Positions 757-40,125 of a stretch of 48,646 nucleotides of DNA are shown here, piece after piece (positions within the stretch are counted from its first letter, which is position 1; every line of letters begins with the position of its first letter). Location: NCBI GenBank assembly GCA_946486465.1, contig CAMLTY010000003.1:1-48646 (forward strand). The letters are read 5' to 3'. The stretch is from an uncultured Mycoplasmatota bacterium (GTDB taxonomy: Bacteria; Bacillota_I; Bacilli_A; RF39; UBA660). The position numbers were made by a program, and so were the translations under genes. The notes beneath the pieces are model-generated. The model was not told where the DNA came from and did no database searches. It saw only the letters and a program-made list of their open reading frames with translations.

Positions 757-1329
757 ATGAGTGCAAAGTATTTAAAAGTTATGTTTGATGACGTTAGTGG
801 TGCTAATGATAATTTAAAATATAAACTTGATGAAGTAAATATTGCCAAAAACTTTAATCCTAATGCTAATAATCCTAAAGAAATGGGTGGATTTAATTTT
901 TCGACTGAAGATAAGATATTTAGATGGTTAGTTAGAGGAGATACTTTATATGATGTAATAATACCAGAGGATGCAGAGATTATTAATGTTTCAAGTAACT
1001 CTGCTCCTAATGGTGTATTTAGGACTAATAAAATAATTTTAACTAATAAAAGAAAAATGATGGATGAAATGGCAATGTATTTCTATAAGAAATCTAACTT
1101 GCCAGAAAAATCATATTATAAAGCTTTAGCAGGTATTATGGTAAGAGGTTATAAAAATACTTGTTTACAATTGATTAGGGATAAAGTTAATAAGGATAAT
1201 ATAGATTTAGTATTAAAAGAAATCAATGATTTTGTAGGACCTAATATGAGTAAAGAAAAAGATAATAGTCATAAAGTCTTTTATGAAGTTATGGATGTTT
1301 TAAATAAAATAAAAGTGTCAAATGAGTGA
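757..1329 (+). CDS. Hypothetical protein (190 aa), probably co-transcribed with the upstream gene
   Basis: Long ORF 17 nt after the upstream stop, with GGAAG upstream of the ATG. I recognise no family with confidence. Confidence 0.6.
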   Translation: MSAKYLKVMFDDVSGANDNLKYKLDEVNIAKNFNPNANNPKEMGGFNFSTEDKIFRWLVRGDTLYDVIIPEDAEIINVSSNSAPNGVFRTNKIILTNKRKMMDEMAMYFYKKSNLPEKSYYKALAGIMVRGYKNTCLQLIRDKVNKDNIDLVLKEINDFVGPNMSKEKDNSHKVFYEVMDVLNKIKVSNE

Positions 1330-1398
1330 CAATCTCTTTAAATTATTCTTTAGTTTTGTTATACTTAAGTAGAAAAGATACGAAAGAGAGTGGTAGTT

Positions 1399-3675
1399 AT
1401 GGCAAAAAGAAAGAAAAAGAAAGAAACTAAAAAAGGTTTTGCTCATTCAACAGAATTATATGGAGTATTACTTGTTTTAGCAGCGATACTTGGGATTGGT
1501 AGATATGGTCCTGTTGGTAATATGATTGCATCCTTTGCAATATTTCTTGTAGGAGTATTATATAATCCTTTATTAGTAGTTCTTTTAATACTTGGAGCAT
1601 ATTTAATTATAAATAGAAGTTGGCCTAATTTATTTACTACTAAAATGTTAGGTATATATCTTTTATTAATAGGAGTATTAGTTTTAATGCATGAAAACTT
1701 TATCTTACAAAATGATAGTAATGCTGTTAAAGTCTTTAGTGAAACTACTAATCAGTTAATTAACTCTTTTTCAGATGTTATGAAAGGGGCAAGACCTAAT
1801 GCTATTGGTGGAGGTATTATTGGTTGTACCTTTGGGGTCTTGTTTATGATGTTATTCTCATATAGAGGAATGCAGATAATCGCTTGGACTTTAATTATTA
1901 TAGGATTTTCACTATTTACTGGCTTTTCAATTATTGACTTTGTTAAAGATAAAGCAAAGGCTGCTAAAGAGAAGTTTCCTAAGAGGGATAAGAGTAGTAG
2001 TGATGATGAAGAAGAGGTTAGTACTAAGAAACCTATTATAACAGGAAATGAAGAGCCTGCTATGGGTGAGATAAAAGATGATGATAAGAAAATTGTTATA
2101 TCTAGTATAGATGAGCTTACTAAAGCGAAAGTTCATGAAGATACTCCTAAAGAGGATGCTACTGAAGTAAGTGAAGTAAATGTAGTAGATGAAAATAAAG
2201 TTACTGTTAAACATAATTATGTGTTGCCACCTATTACTTTATTAGACCAGTCTAAGAAAAAGAAGAATAGTGTTAATCAAAGTTTAATTGAAAAGAATAT
2301 AGAGATACTTGAGAAAGTATTAAAAGACTTTAATATTATTGGTAAAGTAGTAGAAGTACATATTGGTCCTACTGTTACCCAGTATGAGTTAGAATTACAC
2401 TCTGGTACTAAGGTTAGTAAACTTTTATCCATACATAGAGAAATAGCTTTAGCCATTGCAACTAAGGACGTTAGAATACAAGCTCCTATTCCAGGAAAGA
2501 ACACAGTTGGTATAGAAATTGCTAATAAAGAAACATCTTCTGTATCATTTAGAGAAGTATTAGAAAAAGTACCTAAGTCTCTAGATGGTTCTAAACTACT
2601 TTGTCCTTTAGGTAAAAATATTATGGGTAATGTTATTTGGTGTGAGATTAATAAAACACCTCACCTTTTAGTAGCAGGTTCTACTGGTTCAGGTAAATCT
2701 GTTTGTATTAATGGTATTATATGTTCTATTTTAATGAGAGCGAAACCTGATGAAGTTAAACTTGTTATGGTTGACCCTAAAAAGGTTGAACTTTCTGGTT
2801 ATAATGGTGTTCCTCATTTAATGAGACCAGTTGTAACTGACCCTAAAGAAGCATCTGTTGCCCTTGCTAAAATTGTATCTGAGATGGAAAGACGTTATGA
2901 TATGTTTAGTGAGACTAAAACTAAGAATATTGCAACTTATAATGATTATGTAGAAAAGATGAATAAGACTCTACCAGCAGATGAACAAATGAAGAAGATG
3001 CCATTTATCGTGGTAATAATAGATGAGTTAGCAGACCTTATGTTAGTTGCAAGTAAAGATGTAGAAGCTTCTATTATGAGAATTACACAGATGGCTCGTG
3101 CAGCGGGTATTCACTTAATTATTGCTACTCAAAGACCATCGACAGATGTAATTACTGGTGTTGTTAAGGCGAATATTCCAAGCCGTATATCATTTGCCGT
3201 ATCTAGTAGTATAGATTCACGTACAATTCTTGATATGACAGGAGCAGAAAAATTACTTGGTAAAGGTGATATGTTATTCTTACCAATGGGAGAAGCAGAT
3301 CCAGAACGTATTCAAGGTGCCTTTATTTCTGATGATGAGATTAAAAGAATTATTGATTATACAATTGAACAACAAAAAGCAGAATATGACCAAGCCTTTA
3401 TGGATTTAAAAGGTGATAGTGAAAAGAGTGCCTCACAAAAAGAAGATATGAGACAAGAGGAAGAATATGATGATCCTTTATATAATGAAATAGTAGAGTT
3501 TGTTATAGAGACTCAAAAAGCCAGTGCCTCACTATTACAAAGAAGATTTAAACTTGGTTATAATAGAGCAGCACGTATTATTGATTTACTAGAAGAAAGA
3601 GGTATTATTGGACCACCTAATGGCTCTAAACCTAGAGAAGTACTTGTTAAGTTAGATGAACCAACGGAAGAATAA
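1399..3675 (+). CDS. ftsK: DNA translocase FtsK/SpoIIIE
   Basis: Has N-terminal TM segments and an acidic linker. Motifs are Walker A GSTGSGKSV, Walker B VVIIDELADL, IATQRPS, and the C-terminal gamma domain LLQRRFKLGYNRAARIIDLLE. ATG 1399 (MAKRKKKK) sits 8 nt after GAAAGAGAG; GTG 1390 is an alternative start. Confidence 0.95.
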   Translation: MAKRKKKKETKKGFAHSTELYGVLLVLAAILGIGRYGPVGNMIASFAIFLVGVLYNPLLVVLLILGAYLIINRSWPNLFTTKMLGIYLLLIGVLVLMHENFILQNDSNAVKVFSETTNQLINSFSDVMKGARPNAIGGGIIGCTFGVLFMMLFSYRGMQIIAWTLIIIGFSLFTGFSIIDFVKDKAKAAKEKFPKRDKSSSDDEEEVSTKKPIITGNEEPAMGEIKDDDKKIVISSIDELTKAKVHEDTPKEDATEVSEVNVVDENKVTVKHNYVLPPITLLDQSKKKKNSVNQSLIEKNIEILEKVLKDFNIIGKVVEVHIGPTVTQYELELHSGTKVSKLLSIHREIALAIATKDVRIQAPIPGKNTVGIEIANKETSSVSFREVLEKVPKSLDGSKLLCPLGKNIMGNVIWCEINKTPHLLVAGSTGSGKSVCINGIICSILMRAKPDEVKLVMVDPKKVELSGYNGVPHLMRPVVTDPKEASVALAKIVSEMERRYDMFSETKTKNIATYNDYVEKMNKTLPADEQMKKMPFIVVIIDELADLMLVASKDVEASIMRITQMARAAGIHLIIATQRPSTDVITGVVKANIPSRISFAVSSSIDSRTILDMTGAEKLLGKGDMLFLPMGEADPERIQGAFISDDEIKRIIDYTIEQQKAEYDQAFMDLKGDSEKSASQKEDMRQEEEYDDPLYNEIVEFVIETQKASASLLQRRFKLGYNRAARIIDLLEERGIIGPPNGSKPREVLVKLDEPTEE

Positions 3676-3676
3676 T

Positions 3677-3705
3677 AAAGAGATTTCTTGATGATGTCTC
3701 TTTTT
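3677..3705 (+). terminator. Putative intrinsic terminator after ftsK
   Basis: AAAGAGA (3677-3683) pairs with TCTCTTT (3697-3703), followed by Ts. The loop is rather long at 13 nt. Confidence 0.5.
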
Positions 3706-3752
3706 CTTTATAATTATTTATGCTAAAATATGTTGTGAAAAGGACTGATGTT

Positions 3753-4586
3753 ATGAAACTTTTAGGTGTAATAAGAGATTCTAATTATTTAGAATACTTA
3801 GATAATGGTTTAGATGGACTTATCTTACCATTAGAAAATTTTTCTGTTGATTATTTTAAATATTATAATATTTCTGACATAAAAGAATATAAGAAAAATA
3901 CTGATAAGCTATGTTTTGTTGTTATAAATAAAATGATATTTAATAATGAGTTAGATAATTTACTTAAGGTATTAAAAGAACTAGAAAATATAAAAGTAGA
4001 TGGAGTGTTCTTTTATGATTTAGCAGTTCTTAATCTAGTCAAAGAAAATAAAATAAACATTAACTTAATCTACAATGGTACTCATATGGTTACTAATAGT
4101 GATACTATTAATTTGTATTATGATTTAGGAGTTAAAAGAGCCTATCTCTCTAATGAAATAACTAAAGATGAAGTACTTAATATAAGAAGTAATACTAAAA
4201 GTGATTTATTTATTCTTTTGCTTGGCAATCCTGTAGTCGCTATGTCTAGAAGGAATTTACTTACTAGTTATTTTGATAATAAAAATAAAAGTAAGAGTGA
4301 AATAATCACTATTAAAGAACCTAAGAGTGGGCAAGAGTTCTTAGTTAAAGAAGATAGTAATGGGACAACTTTCTTTTATAATAGACGTCTTAATTTAAGT
4401 AATGTATATAAAGAATTAGATAATAGTGGTATTAATTATGGAATTATAGAACAAGGCGATTATAGTAGTGATGAATTTAAAGAACTAATAAATGCTTTTG
4501 TTAATTTTGATAAGCAAAGAATAGATGAGTTGGCAGGACATAATAGAGGTTTCTTATATAGAGAGACTATCTATAAAGTAAAGTAG
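3753..4586 (+). CDS. Peptidase U32 family protein (YrrN-like, first of a pair)
   Basis: U32-like sequence directly upstream of a second, clearer U32 gene, as in the B. subtilis yrrN-yrrO (TrhP-type) pair. I prefer ATG 3753 (AAAGGA RBS) because ATG 3720 lies inside a TGCTAAAAT extended -10-like element. Confidence 0.7.
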   Translation: MKLLGVIRDSNYLEYLDNGLDGLILPLENFSVDYFKYYNISDIKEYKKNTDKLCFVVINKMIFNNELDNLLKVLKELENIKVDGVFFYDLAVLNLVKENKININLIYNGTHMVTNSDTINLYYDLGVKRAYLSNEITKDEVLNIRSNTKSDLFILLLGNPVVAMSRRNLLTSYFDNKNKSKSEIITIKEPKSGQEFLVKEDSNGTTFFYNRRLNLSNVYKELDNSGINYGIIEQGDYSSDEFKELINAFVNFDKQRIDELAGHNRGFLYRETIYKVK

Positions 4587-4591
4587 GTGAT

Positions 4592-5779
4592 ATGATGAAA
4601 AAAATAGAATTACTAGCACCAGCAGGGGATTTAGAAAGACTTAAAGTAGTCTTATTATACGGTGCTGATGCAGTTTATGTAGGAGGAGAAAAACTAAGTT
4701 TAAGGGCGAATGCTACTAATTTTAGTTTAGATGAATTAAAAGAAGGATGTACTTTCGCTCATAATTTAGGTAAAAAAGTATATCTAACCGCTAATATTGT
4801 TTTTCATGATAAAGATAGATTAGGTATGGAAGAATACATTAAAGAAGTTATAGACTGTGGTATTAATGCTTTTATCGTCAGTGATTTATATCTTGCCAAA
4901 TATATTATAGATAACTATAAAACAGTAGAGGTTCATATATCTACACAAGACTCTATTACTAATAAAGATGCTGCAATGTTTTATAGGGACTTAGGAGCAA
5001 GTAGAGTTGTTCTTGCAAGAGAACTATCTCGTGATGAGATAAAAGAAATATCAAGTATACCTAATCTAGAAACAGAAGTCTTTATTCATGGAGCCATGTG
5101 TACTTGTTTTAGTGGTAGATGTGCTTTATCTAATTATGTTACTAATCGTGATGCAAACCGTGGAGGATGTGCGCAAGTATGTCGTTTTGCCTTTGATTAT
5201 AAAGATAATGATAAATTTACTCTTGCTACTAAAGACTTAAATATGGCAAGCTATATTAAAGATTTAATAGATATTGGTGTTAGTTCCCTAAAAGTAGAAG
5301 GAAGAATGCGAAGCCTTTATTACCTTGCTACTGTTATTGGTAGTTATAGATTTTTAATAGATAGTATTTATAATGGCACTTTAACTGATGAGAAATTACT
5401 TGAGTATGAGAAACGCCTTGACTCTGTCGCTAATCGTGATACAACTAGTCAATACTTTAATCATCTAGCAGATGTAACTGACCAATATTATACAGGTAGA
5501 CAAGAAGTATCTAATCAAGAGTATTTAGGACTTATAATAGGTTATGATGAAAAGATGAAATCTATTGTCTTAAAAGAACGCAACTACTTTAAAGTAGGTG
5601 ATGAAGTAGAAATATTTACACCAAAAGGAGAGATTTATCCTTATAAAATAAAAACTATTTATAATGAAGATAATGAGAAAATAGATGTTGCAAGACATCC
5701 TGAAGAAATATTAAAATTACCATTTGATACAAGACTTATTTCTTATTCTATGATAAGATTAATTAGAAAGAGTAAATAA
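4592..5779 (+). CDS. Peptidase U32 family protein (YrrO-like)
   Basis: LLAPAGDLERLKVVLLYGADAVYVGG..., IHGAMCTCFSGRCALS and KVEGRMRS are typical U32/collagenase-like motifs as I recall them. Confidence 0.85.
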   Translation: MMKKIELLAPAGDLERLKVVLLYGADAVYVGGEKLSLRANATNFSLDELKEGCTFAHNLGKKVYLTANIVFHDKDRLGMEEYIKEVIDCGINAFIVSDLYLAKYIIDNYKTVEVHISTQDSITNKDAAMFYRDLGASRVVLARELSRDEIKEISSIPNLETEVFIHGAMCTCFSGRCALSNYVTNRDANRGGCAQVCRFAFDYKDNDKFTLATKDLNMASYIKDLIDIGVSSLKVEGRMRSLYYLATVIGSYRFLIDSIYNGTLTDEKLLEYEKRLDSVANRDTTSQYFNHLADVTDQYYTGRQEVSNQEYLGLIIGYDEKMKSIVLKERNYFKVGDEVEIFTPKGEIYPYKIKTIYNEDNEKIDVARHPEEILKLPFDTRLISYSMIRLIRKSK

Positions 5780-5812
5780 ACTTTCAATATAAATTAATAA
5801 GGAGAAGTAGTT

Positions 5813-6181
5813 ATGAGTAGTAAAGAATATTATTATGTTCCAGTTTATGCAATGCTTGCCGAAGATTTTGTTTGTGAGGAAATTGAATTTAAGTTTTTAG
5901 ATAAGATAATAGTTTCTGCAACTAAAAATGGTTATGAAGAGTTAGATGGCTTTAATAACTTTGTTATCTTAAAGTCTAAAAGAGATGAAAGTAAGAAATT
6001 AAATATTGTTAATTATGATGAGTGTCTATATTTAAATGAAGATGATTTTACTGAAGAAAATATGGTAGTAATTGATGATAGCTTTAACAGAGATAATTAT
6101 GTTAAAGATAATTTTGATAATTTTATAAAGATGAAAAGGGGAAATGTGAAAACTAAAAAGTATTATACAGGGAAGAAGTGA
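5813..6181 (+). CDS. Hypothetical acidic protein (122 aa)
   Basis: ORF with an AAGGAGAAG RBS. No family recognised. Confidence 0.6.
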   Translation: MSSKEYYYVPVYAMLAEDFVCEEIEFKFLDKIIVSATKNGYEELDGFNNFVILKSKRDESKKLNIVNYDECLYLNEDDFTEENMVVIDDSFNRDNYVKDNFDNFIKMKRGNVKTKKYYTGKK

Positions 6182-6185
6182 TTTA

Positions 6186-7310
6186 ATGGGAAGTTTTGAG
6201 AAAGCAAAGAAGAACTTTTTAAGGAAAGAAAAAGATTTAAGTCCTTATGCTACTAAAAGTAGTGATGCTGTTAGGTTTAAAGAAGAAAAGGAAGATATTA
6301 GGCCTCCATTTTTTCATGATATAGATAGAATAATACATTCTTTGTCTTATACAAGATACTTGAATAAGACTCAAGTTTATACACTAAACTCTAATGACCA
6401 TGTCAGTAGAAGAATTACTCATGTTCAGTTAGTTAGTAAGATTGCAAGGACAATAGGTAGGGCTTTAAACTTAAATGAAGACTTAATAGAAGCGATTGCC
6501 TTAGGTCATGATATTGGTCACACTCCTTTAGGACATACAGGGGAAGCGATATTAAATAGATTATCTTTAAAAGAACTAGGAGAGTATTTCGCTCACAATA
6601 TTCAAGGTGTAAGATATTATATGGATGTTGCAAAAGATGGAGAAGGGCTTAATTTAACACTACAAACATTGGATGGTATTATGACTCATAATGGGGAGAT
6701 GTTAAGTCCTATCTATGAACCTATGGCTAAAGATAAAGAAGAATTCTTAAGAGAATATAACGAAAGTTATAAAGACTTAGAGAAATCTAAAACTTATCGT
6801 CCTATGACTTTAGAAGGTTGTGTAGTTAGAATTAGTGATATTATTGGATATATTGGTAGAGACATAGAAGATGCTATTATGATAGATAGATTTAAAAGAA
6901 GTGATATACCGGAAAGTATAAGAGATGTATTAGGTGATAATAATAGAGATATTGTTAATACTATTGTCTTAGATATTATTAATGAAAGTATAGATAAACC
7001 TTATATTAAGATGAGTGATAAAGTCTATAAAGCTCTATTCGCTTTAAAGAAATTTAACAATGAAAATATCTATAAGTATTCTATGACTAAAGAAGAATTA
7101 GATTATTATGAAGCTGGTATCAATAAACTATATAATATCTATTTAGATGATATAAAGACAAATAATAAAGAAAGTGATATCTATAAAATATTTTTAAATC
7201 ATCAAGATAAAAGATATTTAGAATCTACTAATATTAAAAGATGGGTGATAGATTATATCGCTGGTATGACTGATGACTTTTTGATAAGAGAGATTAAAAA
7301 TCATGAGTAG
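6186..7310 (+). CDS. HD-domain dNTP triphosphohydrolase (dGTPase-like)
   Basis: RITHVQLVSKIARTIGRAL...ALGHDIGHTPLGHTGE and ISDIIGYIGRDIEDA are HD/dGTPase family signatures. Confidence 0.8.
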   Translation: MGSFEKAKKNFLRKEKDLSPYATKSSDAVRFKEEKEDIRPPFFHDIDRIIHSLSYTRYLNKTQVYTLNSNDHVSRRITHVQLVSKIARTIGRALNLNEDLIEAIALGHDIGHTPLGHTGEAILNRLSLKELGEYFAHNIQGVRYYMDVAKDGEGLNLTLQTLDGIMTHNGEMLSPIYEPMAKDKEEFLREYNESYKDLEKSKTYRPMTLEGCVVRISDIIGYIGRDIEDAIMIDRFKRSDIPESIRDVLGDNNRDIVNTIVLDIINESIDKPYIKMSDKVYKALFALKKFNNENIYKYSMTKEELDYYEAGINKLYNIYLDDIKTNNKESDIYKIFLNHQDKRYLESTNIKRWVIDYIAGMTDDFLIREIKNHE

Positions 7311-8490: not shown

Positions 8491-9285
8491 ATGAATATTT
8501 ATCATGAATTAAACAAAGTAATAGATTATATAGAAGATAATTTAGAAAACGATATAGACTATGAAAAAATAGCTAGAATTCTAGGTGTTAATGTCTATAC
8601 TGCTAAAAAACTATTTAGTCTTCTTTGTAATAATACCATAACAGAGTACATTAGAAAGAGAAGATTAACTTTGTCTTTTTATGATTTAACTGTAAAAAAT
8701 GAGAAAGTAATTGATGTTGCGCTTAAATATCACTATGATAATCCAACATCTTTTTCTCGTGCTTTTTATAAGTTTTATGGCATTAAACCTAGTAAGGCAA
8801 AAGCTTTAAAGAAAGGTATTAAGACTTTTCCTAAAATTGTCTTTAAAGAAGAAGTTACTGATAGTAGTGATTTAACTTATAACATTATATCTTTAGATGA
8901 ATTTACTCTATATGGAATAGGAATTAAGACTACTAATGATACTATTAAGAGAGATGCCCCAAGATTTTTTGATGAATGTATCAATAAATTTAATGGGCAT
9001 CCTGATTATGGTATGGTTACTTATGAAGATAGATATACTAGTGATAATTTTGAATATTGGTGTTTATATAAAGAAAAATTGTCTGGATTATCTAAATATG
9101 TTATTCCTAAGAGTAAATGGATTGTCTTTATAATAGATTCCCAGGAAGCGAAAGATATTAGGAGAGTTAGTCAAAAGTTTTATAAGACAATGTTTTTAAA
9201 TTTACAATATAATATTAGACCTTTGCCAGAACTTGAATATTATCATGATGGAATAACAGAGTTTTTAATACCTATAGAAGATTAA
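8491..9285 (+). CDS. AraC-family transcriptional regulator with a GyrI-like effector-binding C-terminal domain
   Basis: N-terminal HTH_18-type sequence (YDNPTSFSRAFYKFYGIKPS). The C-terminal ~150 aa resemble GyrI-like/Cass2-type domains. Confidence 0.8.
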   Translation: MNIYHELNKVIDYIEDNLENDIDYEKIARILGVNVYTAKKLFSLLCNNTITEYIRKRRLTLSFYDLTVKNEKVIDVALKYHYDNPTSFSRAFYKFYGIKPSKAKALKKGIKTFPKIVFKEEVTDSSDLTYNIISLDEFTLYGIGIKTTNDTIKRDAPRFFDECINKFNGHPDYGMVTYEDRYTSDNFEYWCLYKEKLSGLSKYVIPKSKWIVFIIDSQEAKDIRRVSQKFYKTMFLNLQYNIRPLPELEYYHDGITEFLIPIED

Positions 9286-9302
9286 CAAAGAATTAATTTA
9301 CG

Positions 9303-9332
9303 AAAACTCGTACTATGAAAGATACGAGTTTT
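9303..9332 (+). terminator. Intrinsic terminator after the AraC-type gene
   Basis: AAAACTCGTA (9303-9312) and TACGAGTTTT (9323-9332) form a perfect 10-bp stem ending in a T-run. Confidence 0.6.
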
Positions 9333-9416
9333 ATGTTACACTAAATACGAATACATTTATTTGGAATTAGATGACTTTCTATAACATTTATAATCTTATA
9401 GAAAGGGGCAAGATAT

Positions 9417-9494
9417 ATGAACAAACATGAAAAATCATATTTTATAATTATCATTATCTTGTTATTCATTATTATCACCTTAATCTTTAGATAA
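9417..9494 (+). CDS. Unannotated 25-codon hydrophobic peptide (MNKHEKSYFIIIIILLFIIITLIFR), type-I-toxin-like
   Basis: My own translation. GAAAGGGG lies 7-8 nt upstream of the ATG. There is a single predicted TM helix. The ORF is below the 60-aa cutoff of the supplied track. Confidence 0.4.
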   Translation: MNKHEKSYFIIIIILLFIIITLIFR

Positions 9495-9498
9495 TAAT

Positions 9499-9528
9499 AA
9501 CATCTAATTTCTCTTGGAATTAGATGTT
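9499..9528 (+). other. Perfect 11-bp stem-loop just 3' of the small ORF
   Basis: AACATCTAATT (9499-9509) pairs with AATTAGATGTT (9518-9528). The right arm is part of a 13-nt direct repeat, TTGGAATTAGATG, at 9361-9373 and 9514-9526. Confidence 0.6.
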
Positions 9529-9655
9529 ATCTAAAAAACACATTTTTTTGAAAGCATCTATTCTAATAGATGTATTCATTTTTATTTTATGAAGAATCTC
9601 TTCATATATGTATTGTATCACACTTTTCTATAAATTAATAGACCAATTTTTACCT

Positions 9656-9694
9656 AAAAACTGACAAAATATAGAATATAAATGTCAGTTTTTT
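9656..9694 (+). terminator. Terminator-like hairpin about 40 nt upstream of the ATPase gene (possible attenuator)
   Basis: AAAAACTGACA (9656-9666) pairs with TGTCAGTTTTT (9683-9693) across a 16-nt loop, followed by a T-run. Confidence 0.45.
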
Positions 9695-9736
9695 CCTTTA
9701 GTTCTATGTTAAACTTCACTAAAGGGGAGTTTTAAC

Positions 9737-11575
9737 ATGGTAGTCCAATCTATTTACTTAAATAAAGATAATGTTTCCAAGGACTCTTGGCAGGAATTGA
9801 TAGATTATATATGTAAATACAATGGGTATTTTAGAAAATTTAAAATAGTTATAGAAATATTTAATAATAAAATTAAATATTATCTAGTTACTAAATATAA
9901 AGTTCCACCAACAATAAATTCCATGGATGACTTTTTAATAAAAGAAGAGGATATAAATATAGAAATAGATTATCTAAAACATAAACCTATTATTTTAAAT
10001 ATAGATAAAAATGCTATAGAGCTTTCTGATATTAGTAGATTAAAACATAATAGGGAACTTAAATATATTATTATTAATGTCATACCTTTTTTTAATAAGA
10101 GACTATTTAAGACTTATTTATTCTTTAAAAATGGTAATAATTACATTAGAAGAAGATTTATGCTAGCAAGACCTACTTACATACTTAGTATTGATTTTAG
10201 TAATAATAAAAGATTTTCTTATGAGAAGAAAAACAAGTATTTAAACTTAGAAAAAATATTACCTTTTTTAACTAGTAATAATACTGGTATTTTTAGTGTT
10301 GATGCTTTTCCATATCTAAATAGTGATTTATATCTTGATTATAAAGATTATGACTTTTTTAAACATTCCTTAATAGTTGGTAGTAGTGGAAGTGGTAAAT
10401 CTAAACTAATTAGTCTTTTAATTAAGAATATAATGTTAAATAGTGATGATTATAAAGTAGTAGTAATAGACCCTCATGCTTCAATAGAAAAAGATATTGG
10501 AGGATTAGATAGGACTAAAGTAATAGATTTCTTTAATGAAAGTTGTGATTTGTTTTTATCTAGTAGTAGTGATATCGTTATTAAAAATGAACTGTTATTA
10601 TCAGTGTTTAAAAACTTAATGAAAGATGGATATAATTTAAAATTAGAAAGAGTCTTAAGATATACAATTAATCTATTGCTTGTCAAAGAAGATTTCTCAT
10701 TTCTAAATATTAGAAAAGTCTTATTAGATTTAGAATATCGTAATAATCTAGTAAAAGAGTTAACTCCTAAACTAAATGATACAGTTGTTTCCTTTTTCTT
10801 AACAGAGTTTAATGATTTAAAGACTAATTATTATAATGAGAGTATTTCTCCTATAATTAGTTTTATCGATGAGATGTTAGTGTTTTCTACTTTTGAGAAG
10901 AAAAAAATAGGCATAAGTGATGTTATAAAAGATAATGACTTAACTATATTTTCTTTAGATAGAAGTATTTTAGGTGATAATATAGTTAAGACTATATCTT
11001 CTTTAGTGATGGAAGAAATACTTGAAACTGCTATTGAAAATAGAATAAATAAAAAACTAATTTTAGTTGTCGATGAAGTATCATTACTTGAAAATCCTAT
11101 TATGGAGAGAATTTTATCAGAAGCAAGAAAGTTTGATATCGCCCTTATTTTAACAGAACAGTATTTTGGACAGATTAGTAAGAAGTTACAAGACTCAATC
11201 TTTGCAAATGTCATTAATTATTATGTTTTTAGAACTTCAAGAAGTGATGCAGTTATATTAAAAGATATCTTAGATATTAAATTTGCAAGAAGTGTAACTG
11301 ATGATGATAAGATTAACTTGCTTACAGGTTTAAATAATAGAGAAGTTGTAGTAAGAATAAGTAAGAATGGTAAAATTCTTCCTGTCGTTAAAGCGAAAAC
11401 AACTGATTTTGTGGCAGTTCCATTAATTAGAGATAAGAGAAACAAAGAAAATATTGTTAAGAATATATCCACTAGTATTAAGACAAGCTTTTCTAATTTT
11501 ACAACAAAAAGACTAAAAGATATTTTAATTACTTTATCTAATAGCAGAAAAAAAGGAAGTAATAAGTATGAGTAG
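9737..11575 (+). CDS. HerA/FtsK-superfamily (DUF87-like) P-loop NTPase with an unrecognised ~200-aa N-terminal domain
   Basis: Walker A is VGSSGSGKSKL (nt ~10377-10406), followed by VVVIDPHAS where HerA-type proteins carry DPHGEY. Walker B is LILVVDEVS, followed by ILTEQ. There are no TM segments. RBS is AAAGGGGAG. Confidence 0.7.
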   Translation: MVVQSIYLNKDNVSKDSWQELIDYICKYNGYFRKFKIVIEIFNNKIKYYLVTKYKVPPTINSMDDFLIKEEDINIEIDYLKHKPIILNIDKNAIELSDISRLKHNRELKYIIINVIPFFNKRLFKTYLFFKNGNNYIRRRFMLARPTYILSIDFSNNKRFSYEKKNKYLNLEKILPFLTSNNTGIFSVDAFPYLNSDLYLDYKDYDFFKHSLIVGSSGSGKSKLISLLIKNIMLNSDDYKVVVIDPHASIEKDIGGLDRTKVIDFFNESCDLFLSSSSDIVIKNELLLSVFKNLMKDGYNLKLERVLRYTINLLLVKEDFSFLNIRKVLLDLEYRNNLVKELTPKLNDTVVSFFLTEFNDLKTNYYNESISPIISFIDEMLVFSTFEKKKIGISDVIKDNDLTIFSLDRSILGDNIVKTISSLVMEEILETAIENRINKKLILVVDEVSLLENPIMERILSEARKFDIALILTEQYFGQISKKLQDSIFANVINYYVFRTSRSDAVILKDILDIKFARSVTDDDKINLLTGLNNREVVVRISKNGKILPVVKAKTTDFVAVPLIRDKRNKENIVKNISTSIKTSFSNFTTKRLKDILITLSNSRKKGSNKYE

Positions 11576-12266
11576 GGAAGATGCTTTAGTGATTATAAAT
11601 AAGATATTTAAAGCGGTTTTTTTAGTTGATAATAAAGATTCATTAGATGATATTTATAAAAAATATGCTTTTGATATTAAACTGCCACGAAAAGTATATG
11701 ATAGTATAACTCATGAAGAGACATATACTGATTTTGATAATGCTACTAAATTTATTACTAAAGATAATATGGAAAATTTAGATAGTAGTAAGGGCTTTAT
11801 GATGGAAAAAAGAGATTTTAATTCATTAGAAGAATTAATTAATACCTGGGAAGAGATTAATACTATTACTACAGAGCGTTGTTATAATTCTACATATGTT
11901 AGTAAAAGCGATACTATATATGATTCTAGTTATGTCTATAATTCTACTAACTGTTCTAACTGTAAAAATATAGTATTTTGTGATGGATGTGGGAGAAGTG
12001 AATTCTTATTAGCTTCTCAACGTAGTGGAAATTGTATCTTTTCTATTAGAATAGATGACTCTAATAATTGTAGTAACTCCTATAGTGTTATTTGTTCTAA
12101 TAAAATAAGCAACTCTTTATTTATTCAAGACTGCTTTAACCTTGATGAGTGTATGTTCTGCTCTCATATTGCTAATAAAAAGTATTGTATTTGTAATATG
12201 CAGTATGAAAAAGAGACATATTTTTCTCTCAAGAAAATAATTGTTGACTGGATTGTTAATTCTTAG
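11568..12266 (+). CDS. Cys-rich repeat protein of unknown function (232 aa), translationally coupled to the ATPase
   Basis: The start overlaps the upstream stop by 8 nt. The first 104 aa contain no Cys. The last ~128 aa contain 13 Cys in roughly 20-residue Ser/Asn/Cys-rich repeats, ending CMFCSHIANKKYCICNMQYEKETY. Confidence 0.75.
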   Translation: MSREDALVIINKIFKAVFLVDNKDSLDDIYKKYAFDIKLPRKVYDSITHEETYTDFDNATKFITKDNMENLDSSKGFMMEKRDFNSLEELINTWEEINTITTERCYNSTYVSKSDTIYDSSYVYNSTNCSNCKNIVFCDGCGRSEFLLASQRSGNCIFSIRIDDSNNCSNSYSVICSNKISNSLFIQDCFNLDECMFCSHIANKKYCICNMQYEKETYFSLKKIIVDWIVNS

Positions 12267-12320
12267 TATCATTTTAAAGTGTAATGCATAATATACTAAA
12301 GAAATTTATGAAAATAATGC

Positions 12321-12349
12321 TTGATATTTTTGTAAATTTATGCTAAAAT
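12321..12349 (+). promoter_or_regulatory. Sigma-A-type promoter of greA
   Basis: TTGATA (12321-12326), a 17-nt spacer carrying TGc, then TAAAAT (12344-12349). Confidence 0.6.
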
Positions 12350-12409
12350 TTTAGTCGTATTATGGTTAGGGAGACCTAGCCTATTATTATAAATTTTGAG
12401 GTGATTACA

Positions 12410-12883
12410 ATGGGAAACAAAAAAACAGTTTATTTAACAGAAGAAGGACTTAATGATTTAAAAAATGAATTAAGTGAATTAATAAATGAGAAAAGACCTG
12501 CTAATATTCAGGCTATTAAGGAAGCACGTAGTTTAGGCGATTTATCTGAAAATGCTGACTACGATGCTGCTAAAAATGAACAAGCACAAATTGAAGGTAG
12601 AATTAAAACTATAGAGAAGATGCTTGAAAATGTAGAAATAATTAAAGATATTCCTAAAGATGTAGTAGGACTTGGTAGTACAGTTTCTATTAAGTATGTA
12701 GATGATGAAGATGATACTGATGAATACCAAATAGTAGGAAGTCAAGAAGCTGATCCTTTCGAAGGAAGAATCTCTAATGAAAGTCCTATCGCTAAAGCTC
12801 TACTTAATCATAAAGTAGGAGATGTTATTACTGTAGAAAGTCCTAATGGAAGTTATGAGGTTGAAATAACTGAAATAAAATAG
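12410..12883 (+). CDS. greA: Transcription elongation factor GreA
   Basis: YLTEEGLNDLKNEL...IKEARSLGDLSENADYDAAKNEQ plus a C-terminal FKBP-like domain. ATG 12410 follows GAGGTGA. Confidence 0.95.
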   Translation: MGNKKTVYLTEEGLNDLKNELSELINEKRPANIQAIKEARSLGDLSENADYDAAKNEQAQIEGRIKTIEKMLENVEIIKDIPKDVVGLGSTVSIKYVDDEDDTDEYQIVGSQEADPFEGRISNESPIAKALLNHKVGDVITVESPNGSYEVEITEIK

Positions 12884-12917: not shown

Positions 12918-13088
12918 TTATCTTCTATAAAATGGTGGATACATAGGATATACTGGATAGAATGGGTAGATTGGATAATAAAAGTTAGGTCTATTATAAC
13001 TACCTAGTCCATATCCTATAACACCCCCAACAATTAAAGGAATAAAACCATTTCTATTATTATTTTGGTAAATTGGTCTATTGTACAT
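12918..13088 (-). CDS. Unannotated 56-aa Tyr/Pro-rich small membrane protein (MYNRPIYQNNNRNGFIPLIVGGVIGYGLGSYNRPNFYYPIYPFYPVYPMYPPFYRR)
   Basis: My own reverse-strand translation. A strong AAAGGAGG RBS lies 8 nt upstream of the ATG. The ORF fills an otherwise empty 330-bp gap and is below the track cutoff. Confidence 0.55.
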   Translation of the reverse strand: MYNRPIYQNNNRNGFIPLIVGGVIGYGLGSYNRPNFYYPIYPFYPVYPMYPPFYRR

Positions 13089-38180: not shown

Positions 38181-38211
38181 AAATGTTAGGAAACATCTCC
38201 TAACATTTTTT
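38181..38211. terminator. Bidirectional terminator between convergent genes
   Basis: AAATGTTAGGA (38181-38191) pairs with TCCTAACATTT (38198-38208), a perfect 11-bp stem with flanking A and T runs. Confidence 0.8.
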
Positions 38212-39121
38212 AAGTTGCAAGCTCACTATAAACATTTTTATCATAGTTATGTTGTTCATTTTCTAATTCATTTAACTCACTAGTAGTTATTAAGAAGAAA
38301 TTATATTCTAAGATATCACTACCATCAGTAGTAATTGGGTCATCCCAAGTTAGATCTAAATGATACCAGGCATTATCTAAATTAACAGCATTCCAAACAT
38401 GATTTTCTGATGATATTTTATAACTTTTAACCCCCATATCTTCTAAAAACAATTCCATAGTATCAGTATAACCGCCACATAAACTATAACCCTCCAAAAG
38501 AGTACCATACGCAGTATCTGATTTATATCTTACAATATTATTATCACTTCTATCCTTATCATATTTGCTATTATTAATAATATAATTATGAGCTTCCTTA
38601 ATTTTATCCTCATTACTCATAGAATTATTCCATATTTCACTTTCTACTTCTTTAACTTTCGCTTCAATTAATTTAATATCACTATTGCTATAGATATGTT
38701 CAATCTTTAAAGTAACTTTGCCATAATCATCATAACTAGTTTCTAAATGTCTAAAACTATTAAAAGGATGAACAAAGTTATTTATCGTTGATAGAACCTT
38801 TTGATTATTAGCAAGACTGTCAACATCATTTATACATGAAGAGTATTCATCAGGACAGTAAAATGAGAATTCTTCTACTCCAGAGTTTAAAACAGTGTAA
38901 TAAATATTTAATAAGTCTTGATATTCGTTAGGAGTAAAGTCATCAGTTCGTTTAACAAAATTAAAATCATAATCTCTTGTATAATCGTTAGATTCCTTTA
39001 AAGTTACATCTTTATTTTCTTTAACAAAATAAGTTCTATATAAATTATATAAAGGACGTCTAAAAGCAAAAGTAAATCCGAATAAAATAATTAAAAATAA
39101 CAAAACAATGTATTTTTTCAT
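38210..39121 (-). CDS. Membrane-anchored transglutaminase-like (cysteine protease fold) protein
   Basis: N-terminal TM anchor. LCGGYTD...NHVWNAV...YHLDLTWDD matches the Cys-His-Asp transglutaminase core. Confidence 0.75.
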   Translation of the reverse strand: MKKYIVLLFLIILFGFTFAFRRPLYNLYRTYFVKENKDVTLKESNDYTRDYDFNFVKRTDDFTPNEYQDLLNIYYTVLNSGVEEFSFYCPDEYSSCINDVDSLANNQKVLSTINNFVHPFNSFRHLETSYDDYGKVTLKIEHIYSNSDIKLIEAKVKEVESEIWNNSMSNEDKIKEAHNYIINNSKYDKDRSDNNIVRYKSDTAYGTLLEGYSLCGGYTDTMELFLEDMGVKSYKISSENHVWNAVNLDNAWYHLDLTWDDPITTDGSDILEYNFFLITTSELNELENEQHNYDKNVYSELAT

Positions 39122-39491
39122 AAAATCCTCCTATTTAATTCTAGCAAGGAAGGGAAGTTTTGTAAATCTAAAAACAAAATAAATGTTCCGGTCTATGTAA
39201 AATGTGATATATACTAATTATTAAAAGAAGGGATATTAAATAAATATAATATCAATTATACTTATTTTATACACAGTTCAAATGATATAACTTTAGAGAC
39301 TGCAAGTAATCTTTATGTCAGAGTAGAGAAGATAAAGAAAAAGTGTTTAGTGGAGAGGCACTTGCTAAACTTACATACGATGAAGTAGTAATTGAATTTA
39401 TGAAAGTATTAGAAGTAGTTCCTAATTTAGAACCTGATGATAAGTTACAATTATTAGTTTTATACTATGGTAAGAAAAAGGGGATAAAATA

Positions 39492-39514
39492 AAAAACAGG
39501 TTCGTCCTGTTTTT
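39492..39514. terminator. Terminator downstream of def
   Basis: AAAAACAGG (39492-39500) pairs with CCTGTTTTT (39506-39514). Confidence 0.7.
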
Positions 39515-40061
39515 ATATTGCTCTATATTTATCACTGTCTTTATAGGGATTCTTAGGATCTATATAATCTGTAAACATAACCCCATTTAAATGATCTATT
39601 TCGTGTTGAAAGGCAATAGCAAGTTCTTCTCTAGCACGAACTCTTATTTTATTACCTTTAGTATCATAGCCTTCTACGGTAACTCTAGCATATCTTGGAA
39701 CAATACCATCAACTTCACGGTTTACAGATAAGCATCCTTCTCCCATTTCTACATATATCTTTTCACTTGAATTGCTAATAATCTTAGGATTACAAATAAT
39801 ATAAGTATCAAACTCTTCTTCATCTACTTCATGAACAATTACTAAATATCTTTTAGGAATACCTAATTGAATTGCTGCCATACCCATACCAGGTCTTAAA
39901 TTATACTTTTCTGATAATCTTTCTATTTGACTATTAGTTAGATATTCTACCATTAAGTCTATAGTCTTTAAATCATCTTTACTTAATGGAAAAGTAACAT
40001 CTTTACTAACTAATCTTAATCTTTTATCTTTTTCATCTAATATATCTTTATTTCTTAACAT
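39513..40061 (-). CDS. def: Peptide deformylase
   Basis: GMGMAAIQLG, EGCLS and HEIDHLNG motifs. Confidence 0.95.
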   Translation of the reverse strand: MLRNKDILDEKDKRLRLVSKDVTFPLSKDDLKTIDLMVEYLTNSQIERLSEKYNLRPGMGMAAIQLGIPKRYLVIVHEVDEEEFDTYIICNPKIISNSSEKIYVEMGEGCLSVNREVDGIVPRYARVTVEGYDTKGNKIRVRAREELAIAFQHEIDHLNGVMFTDYIDPKNPYKDSDKYRAI

Positions 40062-40125
40062 CTAAATACCCCATTTCTTGCTATATTTTAACACATATCT
40101 AAAAAAAAAGAAAGGAAAACCTTTC

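Follow-up and report, generated by a model that had tools for sequence, protein, structure and literature searches.

Two adjacent genes, ORF1 (9737–11575, + strand; 612 aa) and ORF2 (11568–12266, + strand; 232 aa), in a 48,646-nt stretch of contig CAMLTY010000003.1 from an uncultured Mycoplasmatota bacterium (hereafter, the window), seem to encode the two subunits of an undescribed, vertically inherited, and regulated ATPase machine, formed by a soluble motor of the FtsK/HerA/TrwB superfamily and an acidic protein modelled as a β-solenoid. Taken in full, including an accessory head, promoter control, and DNA as the substrate, this reading falls somewhat short of an even chance, its weight resting mainly on the stable two-component regulated machine. 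An earlier note on this DNA, made from the sequence alone, had reported the span of the pair (9737–12266), the length of ORF1, and the 8-nt overlap, and the sequence bears them out: the ATG of ORF2 lies 8 nt inside ORF1 (ATGAGTAG) and is preceded, 8 nt upstream and within the 3′ end of ORF1, by the ribosome-binding site AAAGGAAG (11552–11559, + strand).

The pairing of both genes is constant among related genomes. A scan of one genome per species yielded 184 relatives of ORF2, from which 80 loci were kept for locus analysis, all from metagenome-assembled genomes (MAGs) and nearly all labelled uncultured Bacilli, Tenericutes, Erysipelotrichaceae, or Firmicutes, a few carrying other labels such as Muribaculaceae or Clostridia; Candidatus Coprovivens and Firmicutes bacterium CAG:582 are included. 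A homologue of ORF1 lies directly upstream of the ORF2 homologue in 79 of the 79 loci whose contig allows it to be seen, with −11 to +7 nt between the stop codon of the first gene and the start codon of the second, and with 55 of the pairs overlapping. In the 62 distant loci, mean identity is 59.6% for ORF2 and 45.1% for ORF1. greA and the other flanking genes are retained in close relatives only, the flanks of distant loci being different and made up of ordinary chromosomal genes. Moreover, both families are also neighbours in other bacteria, in Patescibacteria, and in Micrarchaeota, so that the dedicated partnership proposed in the earlier note is upheld by co-occurrence in distant lineages of two domains of life. 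That ORF1 and ORF2 are functionally unrelated and merely share one transcript is so improbable as to be nearly negligible, as the adjacency in Bacilli persists despite rearranged flanks and the association recurs in other bacteria, in a Patescibacteria MAG, and in Micrarchaeota.

Fold and motifs place ORF1, a soluble ATPase, in the FtsK/HerA/TrwB superfamily: a RecA-like core, Walker A and Walker B, an arginine after Walker B, a sensor glutamine, and the HerA/TrwB/VirB4 fold are all present. The motifs listed in the earlier note are found at their places, namely Walker A GSSGSGKSKL (aa 215–224; 10379–10408, + strand), VVVIDPHAS (aa 241–249), Walker B LILVVDEVS (aa 441–449; 11057–11083, + strand), and ILTEQ (aa 471–475). 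Across 37 homologues, residues G215, S217, G218, G220, K221, S222, and K223 of Walker A, D446 and E447 of Walker B, the SEARK arginine, and the sensor glutamine Q475 are invariant and, since they are, the catalytic site should be intact and the enzyme is predicted to be active. The protein is basic (pI 9.2), and its AlphaFold2 model (pLDDT 83) comprises a β-rich N-terminal domain (aa 1–200), the RecA-like core, a helical insertion (aa ~280–400), and a disordered basic C-terminal tail (aa 569–612). No transmembrane helix or signal peptide was detected in either protein, the maximum Kyte–Doolittle 19-residue mean being 1.09 in ORF1 and 1.02 in ORF2, and aa 1 to ~200 of ORF1 find no match in Pfam, NCBIfam, or PADLOC profiles; the earlier description of this region as unlike anything recognised and free of membrane helices thus holds.

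Sequence profiles and structural comparison assign ORF1 to the superfamily and to none of its well-characterised members. The Pfam match to DUF87 (1e-09) covers aa 196–248 only (profile positions 12–62 of 220), that is, the Walker A region, and a profile search of the PDB found the Walker A stretch alone. TrwB_AAD_bind scores above its cut-off (2e-07; 30.5 bits, cut-off 20.5), FtsK_SpoIIIE (PF01580) gives 21.0 bits and stays below its gathering cut-off of 24, and every NCBIfam match lies 10 to 40 times under its cut-off, including HerA_antiphage (21.5 bits; cut-off 800), TraD (20.9 bits; cut-off 366), TraG, likewise far under, and EccC (~15–18 bits; cut-offs 346–509). Foldseek retrieves HerA (4d2i, 7e-14), TrwB (1e9s, 3e-12), DndH-C (7es4), and VirB4 (4ag5) with probability 1.00, E values from 7e-14 to 1e-10, and ~15% identity; the HerA subunits of Sir2 and DUF4297 complexes (8wod, 8j4u, 8sub, 8ziq) match at E ~1e-11, and HerA–NurA (9x1m) matches as well. 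Alignments to HerA extend over ~550 columns, but with an rmsd of 13 Å; where HerA carries its N-terminal HAS β-barrel, the model of ORF1 has the β-rich domain, and aa 1–195 show no sequence match. The smallest rmsd, 5.7–7 Å over ~400 columns, is obtained with TrwB. HerA, FtsK, coupling proteins, and the MADS system each have defining features that are lacking here. A ring, presumably a hexamer, is assumed by analogy with the superfamily.

The same superfamily serves in bacterial immunity, and the earlier note had listed defence among the possible roles of the pair. Were the pair an anti-phage or anti-plasmid system built like HerA and its effectors, ORF2 would take the place of Sir2 or DUF4297, as a new effector or sensor that becomes active on the ATPase ring. 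Nezha (Sir2–HerA), DUF4297–HerA, Dnd/Ssp, and related systems use ATPases of this superfamily, the structural neighbours of ORF1 include the Sir2–HerA and DUF4297–HerA complexes, the two-gene architecture is tightly coupled, and the PADLOC profiles mad8 and HerA match 37 of 37 homologues, mad8 being the top match of ORF1 itself (E = 3e-18, aa 209–530). Nevertheless, these PADLOC matches span the generic ATPase core only, and mad8 goes back to ATPases of the PDB that were collected with HHpred, which makes a match to this profile generic and indicative of the superfamily alone; mad8 was thus rejected as the closest family of ORF1. The HerA_antiphage score is far from its cut-off, as given above, and ORF2 has neither a PADLOC match nor an enzyme-like domain. 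Weak phage-family matches could be taken to favour defence as well, i.e., phrog_5156 for ORF1 and phrog_15341 for ORF2, both PHROGs without an assigned function, and a gut-virus protein, A0A8S5RUL5 (E 1.6e-05). However, no relatives of the pair were found in viral contigs, and a phage origin was rejected on this ground and on the weakness of the PHROG matches.

Composition and selection also bear on defence. The earlier note had described the pair as more AT-rich than neighbouring housekeeping genes, but the difference is not significant: among 45 ORFs of the window, the GC content is 23.7% in ORF1 (z = −1.35) and 26.2% in ORF2 (z = −0.48), GC3 is ordinary for both, and ftsK, said to have ~40% G+C, measures 32%. 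Against relatives at useful divergence, dN/dS is 0.11–0.17 for ORF1, 0.08–0.13 for ORF2, and 0.10–0.13 for dnaE, with similar values for the HD hydrolase. Both genes are under purifying selection like their housekeeping neighbours and have a native composition, and horizontal transfer of the pair was rejected, GC, GC3, and dN/dS all being ordinary. Neither a defence island nor mobility genes occur near the pair in the sampled contexts, where the neighbours are housekeeping genes and a single HicA beside one archaeal cluster is the only candidate for a defence gene. Syntenic inheritance, purifying selection of the kind seen in dnaE, native composition, an ordinary chromosomal context, and a partner devoid of enzymatic domains make defence unlikely.

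ORF2 is acidic (pI 4.9) and, in its AlphaFold2 model (pLDDT 80, pTM 0.81), is a stack of short parallel β-strand coils, i.e., a β-solenoid. A helical N-terminal part (aa 1–97) precedes the Cys/Ser/Asn-rich solenoid (aa ~100–190), whose coils have ~12 residues; pLDDT is 85–94 over aa 81–190, strands recur every 11–12 residues along aa 100–187, and the amino acids themselves follow a matching Cys/Ser/Asn register of 12 residues. Searches of Pfam, NCBIfam, and PADLOC gave no match for ORF2, 0 of 58 family members match Pfam, and the family profile finds nothing significant in the PDB (E > 1). Foldseek retrieves generic β-helices from the PDB (best E = 0.04, TM ≤ 0.22), without significant likeness to the characterised families (pectate lyase, tailspike, TBCC/RP2, antifreeze, bactofilin), and the only significant structural matches are two uncharacterised viral proteins. 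No enzymatic, NADase, or nuclease domain could be recognised by profile, PDB, or Foldseek searches. A pentapeptide-repeat DNA mimic of the Qnr/MfpA kind was considered and rejected, the coil period being ~12 and not 20 residues; ORF2 does not match Pfam Pentapeptide even at E up to 1, and an acidic pI is alone insufficient. The most conserved segment of the family is C-terminal (aa 194–218, ECMFCSHIANKKYCICNMQYEKETY) and is modelled with low confidence, as is the tail of ORF1, which would fit segments that fold upon binding.

The cysteines of ORF2 (13 in 232 aa) might point to a different function, in which ORF2 would be a Cys-rich metal or redox store, chaperone, or sensor, loaded or remodelled by ORF1 and induced by a metal- or oxidant-sensing regulator. 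In keeping with this, an arrangement C195-x2-C198-x-H200-x6-C207 is conserved in the bacterial branch, a MerR-family regulator adjoins the pair in the bacterial locus L093, the stretch that begins ~2.3 kb downstream of the pair in a Patescibacteria MAG (L094) encodes an ArsR-type regulator, a thioredoxin, and an ArsP permease, and a desulfoferrodoxin gene is located two genes upstream of the pair in the window. However, 10 of the 13 Cys positions are freely replaced by Ser, Ile, Val, Leu, Ala, or Trp in 58 homologues, so that most of these residues would pack a narrow core rather than bind metal, and a role as metal ligands was rejected. In the bacterial branch, only C195, C198, and C207 are conserved, and the C207 position in the archaeal relatives is, by our own reading of the sequences, occupied by a residue other than Cys. 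Furthermore, the regulators carry domains of the organic-ligand type (GyrI-like/Cass2) and not short metal-sensing ones, and the redox and arsenic genes nearby are no constant companions of the module. A metal or redox function is thus very unlikely.

Beyond the Bacilli, a search of 1.84 billion representative proteins with the ORF2 profile recovered 737 relatives, many of them ~525 aa long, with two copies of the domain, and belonging to Candidatus Micrarchaeota. In this phylum, ATPases flank clusters of ORF2-family genes; in loci L088, L090, and L096, an HTH_10 regulator and an ATPase that matches the ORF1 profile at E 3e-57 to 9e-61 are accompanied by several paralogues with one or two copies of the domain, and several Micrarchaeota loci carry the partner with no ATPase nearby. 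Full-length homologues of ORF1 stand beside the partner in three other loci: in L092 (E 2e-90), six copies of the partner gene come after the ATPase; L093 (E 1e-78), next to rpoBC, has a divergent MerR gene and then the ATPase and a partner with a 4-nt overlap; and L095 comprises an AraC/GyrI-like regulator, the ATPase, and a partner 24% identical to ORF2. In the Patescibacteria locus L094, the partner accompanies a split ATPase (5285–6991), formed by two ORFs of 360 and 213 aa that match profile positions 1–352 and 364–566, which could reflect a true split, a frameshift, or an assembly error. A Dojkabacteria locus, L091, contains four tandem genes of no known family (362–372 aa; 1096–6065) upstream of a lone ORF2-type gene, with no ATPase within 8 kb of the latter.

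The Micrarchaeota clusters are strings of A–B units, either fused in one gene or split, in which A and B alternate, the only exception being a reversed pair where the contig of L119 is cut. Partner domains number 6, 6, 12, and 12 in the four multi-copy clusters that were found first, and the complete ATPase-adjoining clusters in 80 further metagenome loci contain 2, 2, 4, 6 (in six cases), 8, 8, 10, and 12 (in three, two of them on the same contig), always an even number and most often six. The idea of fixed hexamer positions, i.e., of multiples of six, was withdrawn after this recount, which gave even numbers that are not multiples of six, and the A–B unit was retained. As every archaeal cluster is built of A–B units, the working unit of the partner is most likely a dimer, a heterodimer in archaea and presumably a homodimer where there is a single gene. 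The six domains of L096 map one-to-one and in order onto six of L090 with 47–68% identity, against 32–39% within a genome, so that the paralogues are old.

The regulator upstream of the pair and a palindrome in front of ORF1 also belong to the module, and both had been missed by the earlier note, which had nonetheless correctly named the flanking genes as an AraC-type regulator and greA, as profiles confirm. The regulator gene (8491–9285, + strand) has the AraC/XylS architecture with a Cass2/GyrI-like domain (Pfam HTH_18, 4e-13, 49.8 bits, cut-off 33.6; Cass2, 8e-09, 36.3 bits, cut-off 27) and probably controls the ORF1/ORF2 pair. A homologue with 42–53% identity is found upstream of ORF1 in 61 of the 63 loci that have at least 2.5 kb of upstream sequence, and the same AraC plus GyrI-like architecture is directly upstream of the pair in L095. 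Elsewhere, the module is flanked by other one-component regulators, MerR in L093 and HTH_10 in Micrarchaeota; a ligand domain common to the AraC-type regulators and the MerR-type one of L093 was looked for and rejected, as there is no similarity.

The palindrome (9656–9693, + strand) reads AAAAACTGACA-N16-TGTCAGTTTTT, with a core formed by CTGAC (9661–9665) and GTCAG (9684–9688), and is probably an operator that overlaps the −35 region. CTGAC-N18-GTCAG is exact in 56 of 76 loci and has one mismatch in 14 more (70 of 76 in total), the spacing being always 18 nt, and it mostly precedes the start codon of ORF1 by ~76–83 nt, with distances of 90 nt in three loci and 72 nt in one. The window contains a single copy of it, where 0.12 copies would be expected by chance. 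Downstream of it, a TGnTATACT-type extended −10 element lies at a similar distance in most distant loci; its counterpart in the window, TGtTAAACT (9707–9715, + strand), read from the sequence, would mark the promoter, and is followed by the ORF1 ribosome-binding site AAAGGGGAG (9721–9729, + strand), which is kept in close relatives. Since the palindrome is conserved in sequence and without covariation across ~45% protein identity, it would be a protein-binding site over the −35 region. Where the regulator is separated from ORF1 by an insertion sequence (IS) element or other genes (L002, L005, L029, L043, L044, and L062), the palindrome stays with ORF1, and it is absent in both loci that lack the regulator (Fisher p = 0.005, uncorrected for phylogeny). 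The CTGAC palindrome is also absent in L093 and L095, outside the Bacilli branch, where other inverted repeats occur, which suggests that the module has been rewired to other regulators. In L095, the ATPase promoter (5230–5270) contains the inverted repeat TTGCAAAG-N8-CTTTGCAA and, in L093 (6255–6290), TGAC-N5-GTCA stands between −35-like and −10-like boxes, adjoining the MerR gene.

The spacer between the regulator gene and ORF1 (451 bp) is rich in hairpins, as the earlier note had it, and contains three strong inverted repeats (9303–9332, 9497–9530, and 9656–9693), but it is not wholly non-coding. The first repeat, directly 3′ of the regulator gene (+ strand), is a terminator-like hairpin with 10-nt perfect arms (RNA fold −11.7 kcal/mol, z = −3.65). 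A small ORF (9417–9494, + strand) of 25 aa, hydrophobic (MNKHEKSYFIIIIILLFIIITLIFR) and with its own AGGGGC ribosome-binding site, precedes the second repeat, a 13-bp perfect hairpin (−16.9 kcal/mol), and may be a gene for a small membrane peptide. In the alignment of nine close relatives, it is open in eight, L009 and L015 having a diverged variant, and starts with ATA in L007; L016 lacks this part of the spacer, and the small ORF is absent from the distant loci, where the spacer has only ~90 nt. A riboswitch or other known RNA in the spacer was rejected, as Rfam gave only a sub-threshold SpF36 match (34.4 bits against 48), which corresponds to the hairpin at 9497–9530. An exact 13-nt direct repeat, TTGGAATTAGATG, is found at 9361–9373 and 9514–9526, 153 nt apart, the second copy being one arm of the hairpin after the small ORF. 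In L005 (4724–6076; with the same spacing in L002), an IS element with a DDE_Tnp_1 transposase (450 aa) lies between the regulator gene and ORF1; it is inserted exactly at the left arm of the palindrome, with a copy of CTGAC on either side, and the ORF1-proximal palindrome is intact. In one Bacilli sub-lineage (L081–L083, 3366–6077), a radical-SAM/NUDIX fusion, a methyltransferase-like protein, and a PnuC-type nicotinamide riboside transporter are encoded between the AraC-type regulator and the ATPase.

In the proposed regulated two-subunit machine, ORF1 would be a soluble, ring-forming motor of the FtsK/HerA/TrwB class, a hexamer by superfamily analogy, and ORF2 would be made together with it through translational coupling. 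ORF2 would most likely bind the ring as a dimeric accessory ‘head’, like the NurA dimer or the Sir2 and DUF4297 rings on HerA, and could provide the motor with substrate handling or regulation rather than with an enzymatic activity. The operon would have its own promoter, the palindrome over its −35 region being most likely, as far as the sequence goes, the binding site of the adjacent AraC/GyrI-like small-molecule sensor, in which case production of the machine would not be constitutive but induced by a chemical or stress signal. As its polymer, the ring would most likely thread DNA; this is the least certain step of the proposal and is suggested by the basic character of the ATPase and its tail and by DNA translocases being its nearest structural relatives.

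Several observations weigh against this scheme. The ‘accessory head’ is an analogy only, given that ORF2 has no significant structural relative in the PDB. Moreover, the number of A–B units beside the ATPase varies (2–12 domains), and lone double-domain genes occur far from any ATPase (12 cases, plus L091 and L097), both of which fit interchangeable heads or clients better than one fixed complex. As for promoter control, the palindrome can also fold as RNA into a hairpin (−10 to −14 kcal/mol; −10.5 kcal/mol in the window) that has a U tail and a stem that is lengthened by complementary changes in a few loci, and it may thus be a terminator or attenuator, either instead of or besides an operator.

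The varying number of A–B pairs per locus and the lone pairs elsewhere in the genome also speak for ORF2-family proteins being clients of the ATPase, which, guided by their conserved C-terminal segment, would unfold, translocate, or export them as homo- or heterodimers, as in EccC/EssC–Esx systems and coupling proteins; the scattered esx gene pairs of type VII secretion resemble such lone and varying A–B pairs. That this C-terminal segment is both the most conserved part of ORF2 and one of low model confidence is in line with a recognition signal of this kind, ORF1 has a TrwB-like all-alpha domain, and Cys-rich β-solenoids with 12-residue coils, such as the beetle antifreeze protein 1ezg, to which there is a weak match, are extracellular. 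However, membrane helices and signal peptides are missing from both proteins, and in none of the lineages sampled is the module accompanied by a conserved membrane component. The higher conservation of ORF2 than of the ATPase in the distant loci would be unusual for a secreted substrate, the replacement of most cysteines by Ser, Ile, or Val implies that disulfide stabilisation is no feature of the family, and the translational coupling in bacteria is tight and 1:1. A client role for ORF2 is, in sum, rather improbable.

Broader than the two-subunit machine of the window, and doubtful as a joint proposition, is the possibility that the module represents a new class of ATP-driven ring machine common to genome-reduced lineages (uncultured gut Bacilli, Patescibacteria/CPR, and Micrarchaeota/DPANN), with one motor, interchangeable dimeric β-solenoid heads, a small-molecule sensor, and a task that has no described counterpart. 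As part of the same proposition, Bacilli would have a single homodimeric head and Micrarchaeota as many as six or more ancient A–B heterodimers, and the β-solenoid family would constitute a new functional class of proteins, being neither a known effector, nor a nuclease, nor a structural fibre. The biology of HerA/FtsK-class motors is set by their partners (NurA in DNA repair; Sir2 or DUF4297 in immunity), and the β-solenoid is a new partner family, which is conserved in an uncultured gut-associated lineage of Bacilli (at least 184 genomes at species level) and also has members in Patescibacteria and, in much larger numbers, in Micrarchaeota. As these organisms are not yet genetically tractable, a conserved and regulated two-protein machine offers a way into their biology; made up of no more than two proteins, a regulator, and a 28-bp element, the module can be tested in vitro and in surrogate hosts. 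Were defence the true function, it would add a non-enzymatic type of effector to the HerA systems; if not, the motor class would have a new cellular use.

The genes profiled around the pair (6.2–18 kb, plus ftsK at 1390–3675) are housekeeping genes: an HD phosphohydrolase, folD, desulfoferrodoxin, greA, a DUF6568 gene, a SpoU-family RNA methylase, and dnaE; the name of one neighbour gene (L28) is what we take it to be from our own reading of the sequence. No integrase, relaxase, nuclease, or DNA methylase is found among them, as the earlier note had stated for the adjacent genes. The host FtsK proper is the product of 1390–3675, with alpha, gamma, and 4TM domains. In the gap between ORF2 and greA, a hairpin at 12364–12381 (+ strand) is the sole terminator-like site in a consensus scan of 9150–12450, which is weak evidence for a terminator. 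Between greA and the DUF6568 gene, the minus strand carries a 56-aa Pro/Tyr/Asn-rich ORF (12918–13088; ...YYPIYPFYPVYPMYPPFYRR), which has no Pfam match and is 75–100% identical in close relatives. Every ORF of at least 120 aa in positions 1–38000 of the window is on the + strand and GC skew is steadily positive, whereas the minus-strand genes at 38210–39121 and 39513–40061 coincide with a local reversal of the skew (38200–40100); this pattern looks like ordinary leading-strand organisation.

Set against known systems, the module lacks defining features of each of HerA–NurA, HerA–Sir2/DUF4297, coupling proteins, and EccC/Esx. The ORF2 family is absent from Pfam, NCBIfam, PADLOC, and the PDB, and literature searches found no description of an ATPase/β-solenoid pairing, which supports the claim of the earlier note that the system is uncharacterised. 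HerA–NurA, a complex for DNA end resection in archaea and bacteria, is similar in that a dedicated partner is encoded with a ring ATPase of the same superfamily, HerA 4d2i being the best structural match of ORF1. NurA acts as a dimer on the HerA hexamer, which has its parallel in the A–B unit proposed for the ORF2 family. However, ORF2 is modelled as a β-solenoid and not as an RNase-H-like nuclease, ORF1 matches DUF87 in the Walker A region only, with no full-length profile match to HerA and an N-terminal domain that does not match HerA in sequence, and Mre11 and Rad50 are not neighbours of the pair in the window. HerA–Sir2 (Nezha) and HerA–DUF4297 are likewise two-gene units of an ATPase and a partner, and they share with the pair the structural likeness of the ATPase (E ~1e-11) and the weak PADLOC HerA matches, but ORF2 is not a NurA-, Sir2-, or DUF4297-type partner and has no NADase or nuclease domain, the HerA_antiphage score is 21.5 bits against 800, and ORF1/ORF2 is vertically inherited, under purifying selection, and outside defence islands. 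The eight-gene MADS operon, which includes an N6-methyltransferase, differs as well, since only the regulator, ORF1, and ORF2 are conserved together and no DNA methyltransferase is adjacent.

With the coupling proteins TrwB, VirD4, and TraD, ORF1 shares an all-alpha domain that interrupts the ATPase core after Walker A and before Walker B (TrwB_AAD_bind above its cut-off; helical block at aa ~280–400) and, with TrwB, the smallest rmsd. In contrast to them, it has no N-terminal membrane anchor, its scores for TraD and TraG are far under the NCBIfam cut-offs, and relaxase, VirB4, and other transfer or conjugation genes are absent from the window and the related loci; FtsK/SpoIIIE, whose PF01580 profile ORF1 fails to reach at the gathering score, is also set apart by its membrane anchor. 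EccC/EssC–Esx of type VII secretion belongs to the same ATPase superfamily and has small partners in tandem pairs, in several copies, some of them far from the ATPase, and Esx substrates are homodimers in Firmicutes and heterodimers elsewhere. Nevertheless, the pair has neither membrane domains nor membrane partners, the ORF2-type proteins are β-solenoids of ~230 aa and not helical hairpins of 100 aa, and the EccC profiles score ~15–18 bits against 346–509. Finally, as regards the upstream gene only, the Rob-type AraC/GyrI-like and BmrR-type MerR xenobiotic sensors provide the likeness, with HTH_18 and a Cass2/GyrI-like domain beside a presumed target operon, although the presumed target here is the ATPase/β-solenoid pair and not an efflux pump or a stress regulon.

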